From Escherichia phage ECO103 4-12-1: a stretch of 64,000 bases of DNA. Position 1 is the first letter of the stretch. Every line of letters begins with the position of its first letter. The stretch lies in the sequence record OR844650, one strand, 5' to 3'. Below the pieces are notes generated by a model that was given only the letters and a program-made list of their open reading frames with translations, was not told the DNA's origin and did not search any database. The position numbers were made by a program, and so were the translations under genes. Of the stretch, positions 17,221-17,805 are shown piece by piece.

Positions 17221-17805
17221 TTATCGTGTTACCTTACTTGCTTCTACATCACGCTTTTTATAGTACTGATTCCAGATATTGCGGGTTAAACCGTAATCAA
17301 GTACTTTAATAAGGCCGTTGCGATCCTGGCCGATATTCTGTTTTCTGATATCTCTTATCGTTAGTGTTGACAGTGTATCATCAACGTGTTGTAGTGCATC
17401 AGCAAAGCGGTGCTGGCGTTCAATTGCATTACGTTTAATATTGTACTTTAATTCGTTGCACGCGTTAACGTGCTTTACACTGCCTTTACTTGCAGTACTC
17501 AACCGATCCATAACGATAAACATATTATCAGGATCGCATAAATGCATATGCACCTTTGCAAAGTACTGTTTCAATTGAGGGCGGTCATAGTCTAAAAAAT
17601 TCCATACCTTACATTCAGTTTCATTTTGTTCTACACCCGCATCACAATTGGCGACCTTAATCACTAACCGATCATTTAAAGCGAATACAATACGGGAAGA
17701 ACCCGCACCGATGATCTCCAGACCAGCTAACCGACAAGCTGAAAGGATCTCTTTGTTGGTTTCCATTTCTGACAGGGTACGGATGAATTTAGTATAATTA
17801 CGCAT
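17221..17805 (-). CDS. protein kinase-like protein (Ser/Thr kinase fold)
   Basis: Gly-loop 'GAGSSRIV', 'VIKVA' lysine, catalytic-loop-like 'IRDIRKQNIG', 'LDYG' (DFG-like); start corrected from ORF track 17862. Confidence 0.6.
   Translation of the reverse strand: MRNYTKFIRTLSEMETNKEILSACRLAGLEIIGAGSSRIVFALNDRLVIKVANCDAGVEQNETECKVWNFLDYDRPQLKQYFAKVHMHLCDPDNMFIVMDRLSTASKGSVKHVNACNELKYNIKRNAIERQHRFADALQHVDDTLSTLTIRDIRKQNIGQDRNGLIKVLDYGLTRNIWNQYYKKRDVEASKVTR

Follow-up and report, generated by a model that had tools for sequence, protein, structure and literature searches.

A kinase-like gene in an Asteriusvirus genome

The window analysed here is a 64,000-nucleotide (nt) stretch of Escherichia phage ECO103 4-12-1 (sequence record OR844650), a jumbo coliphage that belongs to Asteriusvirus, the genus of 121Q, PBECO4, G17 and Sharanji, and that matches 41 phage records at 88-97% nucleotide identity. 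At positions 17221-17805 its - strand carries a gene for a 194-amino-acid (aa) protein of the PHROG 4301 family, which is very probably a kinase-fold phosphotransferase, with activity predicted, and which lacks most of the C-terminal lobe (C-lobe) of protein kinases. The ATG lies at 17805 and the stop codon at 17221-17223; a longer, TTG-start version of the open reading frame (ORF) had no support among homologs. The original prediction, made from the sequence letters alone, had placed a kinase-like gene here, and its coordinates proved exact, with the ORF on the - strand behind a Shine-Dalgarno sequence. The four motifs that it had read as ordered kinase subdomains (GAGSSRIV, VIK, DIRKQN within IRDIRKQNIG, and DYG) were all found in the order given. 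The features of the gene are as follows.

17221-17805, - strand: coding sequence, from the ORF and its translation; 194 aa, a standalone C-lobe-less protein-kinase-like domain (PHROG 4301 family)
17814-17819, - strand: Shine-Dalgarno sequence AAGGAG, 8 nt 5' of the ATG, by direct reading of the sequence
17686-17709, - strand: Gly-rich loop (Gly-loop) GAGSSRIV, residues 33-40, aligned to PKA GTGSFGRV
17656-17664, - strand: VIK, residues 48-50, from the sequence
17656-17658, - strand: Lys50 of VIK, the beta3 ATP-anchoring lysine, invariant (297/297), in predicted strand 47-52
17614-17628, - strand: QNETE, the family-specific Gln60-Asn61 followed by alphaC Glu64, in predicted helix 55-73
17335-17352, - strand: catalytic loop DIRKQN, residues 152-157 (Asp152...Asn157), aligned to MKK4 HRDIKPSN and PKA YRDLKPEN
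17290-17298, - strand: DYG, residues 170-172, the DFG equivalent with Mg-binding Asp170, aligned to the DFG of PKA and MKK4
17260-17283, - strand: short C-terminal helix RNIWNQYY, residues 175-182, from DSSP of the predicted model

The protein is identical in sequence to Sharanji gp063 (WNN14351.1). Four orthologs of the gene showed 9-19 nucleotide differences but just 0-2 amino-acid differences, and the ratio of non-synonymous to synonymous substitution rates (dN/dS) among them was 0-0.04. The ORF is therefore a real gene under strong purifying selection. Its kinase label is not new: the ortholog is already called a Ser/Thr or protein kinase in the records of fEgEco12, ph0011, Turkey3/5 and PBECO4 (UniProt), and the Sharanji paper describes WNN14351.1 as "another protein kinase ... 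function is unknown". The jumbo-phage and phAPEC6 papers make no mention of this kinase. The novelty is thus moderate and concerns the family, which is uncharacterised and has no Pfam or NCBIfam model.

Conservation of the catalytic residues

Conservation was counted over 317 domain instances from 261 homologous proteins, with the residues aligned at each position as the denominator. K50, E64, D152 and D170 were 98-100% conserved across these domains. The Gly-loop sits between predicted strands 30-34 and 38-42, and within it G35 (289/296), S36 (274/296) and R38 (295/296) were kept almost throughout. Arg38 occupies the place of the third Gly in the canonical GxGxxG, giving the variant form GxGSSR. 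Sequence aligners misplace the beta3 lysine, owing to a beta2-beta3 hairpin that lacks about 5 residues relative to PKA or MKK7; the assignment to K50 therefore rests on the predicted strand order and on its invariance rather than on the alignments. Lys50 and alphaC Glu64 are both present, in predicted strand 47-52 and predicted helix 55-73, respectively. Around Glu64 (296/297), G57 (293/295), Q60 (294/297) and N61 (292/297) are equally well kept, and by sequence comparison the Gly-loop Arg of GxGSSR and the GxxQNxxE pattern can be taken as signatures of PHROG 4301.

In the catalytic region D152 was conserved in 285 of 290 domains and G159 in 287 of 290. Only the Asteriusvirus/RaK2 clade has Asn at position 157, where other family members have H, S, T or Q. 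The His and Arg of the HRD motif are not conserved, and no conserved His precedes D152 in the 317-domain alignment. Both D170 (290/290) and G172 (288/288) of the DYG motif were invariant. The helix RNIWNQYY, whose Y182 is kept in 248 of 269 aligned domains, stands where the activation segment would begin, and the C-terminus of the protein follows 12 residues further on.

A predicted kinase fold

As a single sequence the window protein matched the Pfam Pkinase model (PF00069) at E = 0.0024 and 17.8 bits, under the 31.7-bit gathering threshold. All 82 of the 82 weak matches in a single-sequence search of the PDB were protein kinases, with IRDIRKQN...LDYG pairing with HRDIKPSN...CDFG. A profile of 11 homologs reached MKK4 at E = 1.8e-4 and aligned MKK7 from the Gly-loop through DFG. 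Alignment to PKA with hhalign gave E = 1e-5 to 3e-5 and equated G33/G35 with G50/G52, D152 with D166, N157 with N171, D170 with D184, and the hinge IVMD with VMEY. The profile, hhalign and conservation results are above chance and bear out the kinase-like reading.

AlphaFold2 was run with two sets of homologs. With 11 close homologs the predicted local distance difference test score (pLDDT) was 49.5; with 106 diverse homologs it was 94.2, at a predicted template modelling score (pTM) of 0.90. The predicted topology starts with two N-terminal helices, beta1-3, a long alphaC (55-73) and beta5; alphaD and alphaE then lead to the catalytic loop, beta7-8 and DYG, with a short helix (175-182) last. 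The predicted model and its fold matches are those of a bilobal kinase fold. Foldseek, which had been suggested with the original prediction as a check, returned kinases: APH(2''), the Legionella Lpg2603 kinase, MEK1, PfPK5, Rio2 and PknB from the PDB (E ~2e-4, template modelling (TM) score 0.40-0.47), and matches including T7-like phage kinases from BFVD (E ~1e-5, TM 0.5-0.58). The original prediction had named a missing kinase fold or unaligned catalytic residues as grounds for giving it up; a kinase fold was predicted, and the catalytic residues aligned. Its interpretation is supported and can be refined: the protein is C-lobe-less, falls outside the T7 gp0.7 kinase (T7K) family, and belongs to a large unnamed family that also occurs in polyvalent effectors.

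Absence of the C-lobe

Only 22 residues of the window protein lie beyond DYG, and the activation segment, the APE motif and helices alphaF-alphaI (subdomains VIII-XI) are missing. This truncation is real and family-wide. It is no artefact, because close homologs measure 189-212 aa and the standalone relatives in 80 IMG/VR loci (median 220 aa) have their C-terminus 0-4 residues past the domain model. A split gene with its C-lobe encoded downstream was ruled out by the terminator-like hairpin and the separate promoter cassette that follow the stop codon, and by more than 50 standalone homologs in unrelated contexts that share the same end point. The C-lobe elements absent here normally bind and position peptide substrates.

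Extent and architectures of the PHROG 4301 family

The window protein and its distant relatives match only PHROG 4301, which is annotated "unknown function". No Pfam or NCBIfam model covers the window protein or the distant family members, single-sequence matches being below threshold, and PADLOC gave just weak generic kinase matches, to PD-T4-6. At E <= 1e-3, an exhaustive HMMER search recovered representatives of at least 2,089 clusters (50% identity); the stricter limit of E <= 1e-10 left 253. A word-indexed search returned 533 matches, all named "hypothetical" and none with Pfam domains. Viral and prokaryotic collections were searched with comparable patterns (12-sequence sub-alignment), which yielded 262 relatives in 2.9 million viral contigs (IMG/VR) against 23 in 185,579 prokaryotic species genomes; short contigs of metagenome-assembled genomes or Clostridia account for the majority of these 23. 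The family is almost purely phage-borne.

Long forms of 600 aa or more make up 19 of 83 kinase ORFs and are spread over 14 of 55 dereplicated IMG/VR locus groups. The polyvalent proteins that contain the kinase domain range from 600 to 2,234+ aa and carry it N-terminally in most cases. Their partner modules are ART-PolyVal, GNAT, S-AdoMet lyase and NleE-like methyltransferase domains, 2H/LigT/Acb1-like phosphoesterases and CCA-adding-type nucleotidyltransferases (PolyA_pol). Giant proteins of 1,466-2,234+ aa that open with the mini-kinase were seen in uncultured large phages, in loci L015, L020, L021, L044, L061, L062, L086 and L092 (kinase start near locus position 6000) and in P0111. In P0135 (3,248 aa) the mini-kinase domain lies at 857-1033 and the N-terminus is a phage minor-tail (PhageMin_Tail) domain; from this fusion, the kinase may be delivered from the virion in some phages.

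Tandem mini-kinase copies occur in the metagenomic proteins P0021 (693 aa), P0022 (923 aa), P0030 (969 aa), P0036 (800 aa) and others. At least two copies were present in 44 of the 261 proteins examined, with up to 4 by the family hidden Markov model and up to 6 matched stretches by the close-homolog profile, and the GxGSSR, K, QNxxE and DYG motifs recur in each tandem copy.

No conserved neighbourhood was found around the standalone homologs, which occur in structural, replication, RNA-repair and early-gene contexts. On one 306-kb metagenomic phage contig (L010:8717-16678) a putative cluster for RNA repair stands immediately downstream of a standalone member and consists of AAA_33/tRNA_lig_CPD, NUDIX, an Rnl1-type RNA ligase, HD, a DNA ligase and an Rnl2-type ligase. 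Elsewhere than in this phage, its behaviour is that of an effector module that is mobile.

Transcription context of the kinase gene

Around the kinase gene, the - strand carries a long series of small ORFs. Between 14.7 and 30.5 kb this strand has ten perfect TTGACA-N16/17-TATAAT sigma70 promoters, where 0.19 were expected; examples are those at 16253-16280, 16747-16774, 19597-19624, 19867-19894 and 22796-22823. Most of them are embedded in repeated cassettes of ~78 nt, in which a conserved hairpin of the 5' untranslated region (UTR), GGGGAGAA-nnnn-TTCTCCCC, follows the promoter and stands just before the ribosome-binding site. This 5'-UTR hairpin may serve as a leader that stabilises the mRNA or has a regulatory function. 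Around the kinase gene itself the following elements were read.

18108-18136, - strand: sigma70-like promoter TTGACA-17-TACTAT (10/12), preceding the small gene directly upstream of the kinase gene
18384-18412, - strand: second upstream sigma70-like promoter TTGACA-17-TATTAT (11/12), in the same repeated cassette (repeat D10), preceding the other of the two small genes upstream of the kinase gene
17182-17209, - strand: terminator-like 12-bp hairpin just past the kinase stop codon, of the repeated hairpin family D5/D6

The promoter at 18108-18136 probably drives the adjacent small gene and the kinase gene as one transcription unit, and no strong terminator was found between it and the kinase ATG. 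The two small genes just 5' of the kinase gene, at 17837-18080 and 18137-18357 (-), encode different small proteins behind a duplicated promoter/5' region (D10, 76% identity over 93 nt), and co-transcription of both with the kinase gene is probable. Conserved sequence flanks a repeated 28-nt hairpin (AAAGGGACTGACCGGAGTCAATCCCTTT) that was found at 14376-14470, 17128-17222, 20395-20489 and 23833-23963. It recurs at transcription-unit ends, and its terminator-like stem is read on both strands.

In phage vB_Ec-M-J the kinase ortholog lies inside an annotated 21.5-kb direct terminal repeat (DTR), and the authors of the study on the related phage CBB interpreted the corresponding region, with its many RpoD promoters and short ORFs, as one of early genes for host takeover. 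Early expression of the kinase gene is likely, being well motivated by the excess of sigma70 promoters, by the ortholog in the DTR and by the reading of the CBB authors. Next to the early region, a large and diversified family of paralogs, with 14 or more ORFs of ~375-440 aa in tandem, occupies 39426-57211 (+), and one ORF of this array is labelled an RCC1-repeat protein in the Sharanji record.

Relationship to T7 gp0.7

T7K disarms defences through phosphorylation, has a DPV motif in place of DFG that is proposed to enable hyperactivity and, in its Autographiviridae form, carries a C-terminal shut-off/DNA-binding domain (PMC13645617). The window kinase, which would likewise be expressed early, shares with it a core that ends shortly past the DFG equivalent and a comparably short domain, with ~140 residues from the Gly-loop to the Mg-binding Asp. 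The BFVD models of T7-like kinases also resemble it in predicted fold and in their short, C-lobe-poor layout. In contrast, the window kinase has DYG rather than DPV and no C-terminal shut-off/DNA-binding domain, and its invariant Gly-loop Arg and its QN motif are absent at the corresponding T7 positions.

Homology to T7 gp0.7 was rejected. The hhalign probability was 0.1%, with only the Gly-loop/VIK region aligned, and BLASTP of the window kinase against T7 gp0.7 gave no match. T7 gp0.7 and Sharanji gp144 match PHROG 2828/15752, whereas the window kinase and its relatives match PHROG 4301, and no match of the window kinase to the T7K PHROGs 2828/15752/18305 was found. A tblastn match of T7 gp0.7 at 52618-52872 (E = 0.54) was spurious, lying antisense to the RCC1-like repeat ORFs. 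As judged from these comparisons, the window kinase is not a member of the T7 gp0.7 family.

A kinase of the T7 gp0.7 type is encoded in Sharanji at OR545507.1 66182-66856 (L004:28183-28857, -). This protein, gp144 (PHROG 15752), matches T7 gp0.7 at E = 3.5e-8, has an ITDP motif, and has no counterpart within the 64-kb window. By their sequences, Asteriusvirus phages such as Sharanji carry two unrelated mini-kinases. The jumbophage T7K homologues of Bartolec et al. (PMC13645617) would be of the gp144 type, judging from the assignment in the Sharanji paper and from the PHROG.

Comparison with other known kinases

Iyer et al. 2017 described Ser/Thr/Tyr kinases of polyvalent proteins that lack the C-terminal subdomain and are predicted to modify host proteins in conflict (PMC5512222). 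As in PHROG 4301, these have lost the C-terminal subdomain and retained the ATP-binding and phosphotransfer residues (PMC5512222), and, again as in PHROG 4301, they occur both inside giant polyvalent phage proteins and as standalone forms; the window gene is a standalone form of PHROG 4301. The published diagnostics of the Iyer kinases comprise a Glu N-terminal to strand 2, a conserved Gln in the final strand of the N-terminal lobe (N-lobe) and, separating a conserved His from the catalytic Asp, an insert (PMC5512222). These were not seen here, where R38, Q60/N61 (alphaC), E64, D152 and G159 are conserved instead, the columns being compared by the published text only. The published range of the Iyer kinases (Verrucomicrobia-Chlamydia, Bacteroidetes prophages) also differs from that of PHROG 4301, which is possibly a sister family rather than a member, as compared by description only.

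The best sequence match of the broad profile to a solved structure was the N-lobe of SteC (PDB 8JBI), at E = 4e-4 with the A4 profile and 4.8e-3 with the A3 profile. This match is local and borderline, covering ~50 residues (a pre-Gly-loop helix, the Gly-loop, VxK and then N-x-x-G-I), and 8JBI is itself a truncated construct. SteC of Salmonella, OspG/NleH and HopBF1 are likewise small, C-lobe-depleted kinases used against the proteins of another organism. SteC, however, keeps the activation segment, alphaF and the regulatory Ser379, and the window kinase stops before these; SteC, OspG/NleH and HopBF1 are secreted into eukaryotic cells, whereas the window kinase would act in a bacterium. In comparison with canonical kinases (PF00069/PF07714; MKK4, MKK7, PKA, PknB), the window protein is below the gathering threshold, lacks subdomains VIII-XI and the His and Arg of HRD, and has Arg for the third Gly of the Gly-loop.

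Proposed role and alternatives

We propose that the window gene encodes a minimal protein-kinase-like fold, an ATP-dependent phosphotransferase that is predicted to be active. It would keep a complete N-lobe (Gly-loop, beta3 Lys50, alphaC Glu64), with the C-lobe reduced to an alphaD-alphaE-catalytic-loop-DFG core (Asp152, Asn157, Asp170) and one short helix as a cap. Host RNA polymerase would transcribe the gene as soon as infection begins, using consensus sigma70 promoters of the terminal-repeat region, and the product may act as a standalone host-takeover or anti-defence effector. It would phosphorylate macromolecules of the host and possibly of the phage; the analogy with T7 gp0.7 makes proteins, modified on Ser/Thr/Tyr, the most likely targets. 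Proteins are favoured as substrates because the profile prefers genuine protein kinases and because T7K and the effector kinases offer a precedent. Giant polyvalent effectors of many uncultured large phages have this domain as their N-terminal module. The fold, the conserved catalytic residues, the purifying selection, the extent of the family, its fusion partners and the promoter context are computed results; catalytic activity, early timing, class of substrate and biological role are inferred from them. Taken whole, including early expression, a protein substrate and a host-directed role, this is the account towards which we lean, if only slightly. The observations that weigh against it are given below with the alternatives that they favour.

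A possible but considerably less likely explanation keeps the fold and the chemistry and assigns a non-protein substrate: RNA (for instance tRNA, the substrate of ArkI, a 2'-kinase of archaea), a nucleotide, a molecule of immune signalling or another small molecule, with a role in RNA repair or against nucleotide signals. The peptide-binding elements are absent from the window kinase, its fold matches extend to ArkI, APH and SAICAR synthetase, and relatives are recurrently fused or adjacent to CCA-adding enzymes, 2H phosphoesterases, NUDIX proteins and RNA ligases. At the sequence level, however, the family gave no signal to the ArkI tRNA 2'-kinase, APH(2'') or SAICAR synthetase; its profile favours protein kinases, with the best scores against MKK4/7, PKC, BTK and SteC and not against APH or choline kinases. 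Polyvalent proteins mix unrelated effectors, so their partner modules say little on substrate (PMC5512222). Neighbourhoods are unconserved and include replication and structural modules, and the neighbours in the window are small early ORFs with no RNA-repair genes among them. A more specific form of this idea seems doubtful to us, namely that PHROG 4301 is a distinct phage-specific C-lobe-less class, marked by the Arg of its Gly-loop (GxGSSR) and by GxxQNxxE in alphaC, with an RNA or nucleotide substrate (e.g. tRNA ends or immune-signalling nucleotides), which would partner the CCA-adding enzymes and 2H/Acb1 phosphoesterases that are often its fusion partners against tRNA- or nucleotide-based defences in the first minutes of infection.

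It is unlikely that the window kinase is a strict equivalent of T7 gp0.7, a hyper-promiscuous dual-specificity kinase that hits most host proteins and broadly disarms nucleic-acid-linked defences. The short layout of both proteins, ending soon past the DFG equivalent, their presumed early expression, the BFVD matches to T7-like kinases and the biology of T7K (PMC13645617) would agree with such a role. The family assignments (PHROG 4301 against 2828/15752), the hhalign probability, the DYG motif and the missing C-terminal domain speak against it, and Sharanji already has a true T7K homolog in gp144, which argues for a different job. The early proteins encoded nearby showed no clear depletion of Ser, Thr and Tyr (16.0% vs 18.0%, a weak control).

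Pseudokinases typically lose one or more of the Lys, Glu, catalytic Asp and DFG Asp. In PHROG 4301 these four are essentially invariant over hundreds of divergent domains, and this retention of the phosphotransfer residues argues against a dead pseudokinase, a nucleotide-binding scaffold, or an enzyme of other chemistry such as AMPylation (as in SelO) that acts by binding a host factor. We regard such a protein as improbable, even with the severe reduction of the C-lobe, the missing His and Arg of HRD and the variability of the metal-binding Asn across the family, and with minimal effector kinases such as OspG and SteC needing a partner or phosphorylation for activity (PMC13395416). That the motif resemblance is fortuitous and the protein not kinase-like can hardly be credited, since the profile, profile-profile and structure-prediction evidence converge in spite of the sub-threshold single-sequence Pfam/NCBIfam matches and the low pLDDT of the 11-sequence model.

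To our knowledge, the T7 family is the only one to have been studied among phage kinases. Recent work has shown phage kinases to act as broad weapons against defences (T7K, Nature 2026), and with the window gene a second, far larger kinase-like family has a representative that can be cultivated and infects E. coli K-12. The identity of its substrate would reveal how a kinase functions in the absence of alphaF and an activation segment, what the polyvalent effectors attack, and why Sharanji-like Asteriusvirus keep two unrelated mini-kinases.

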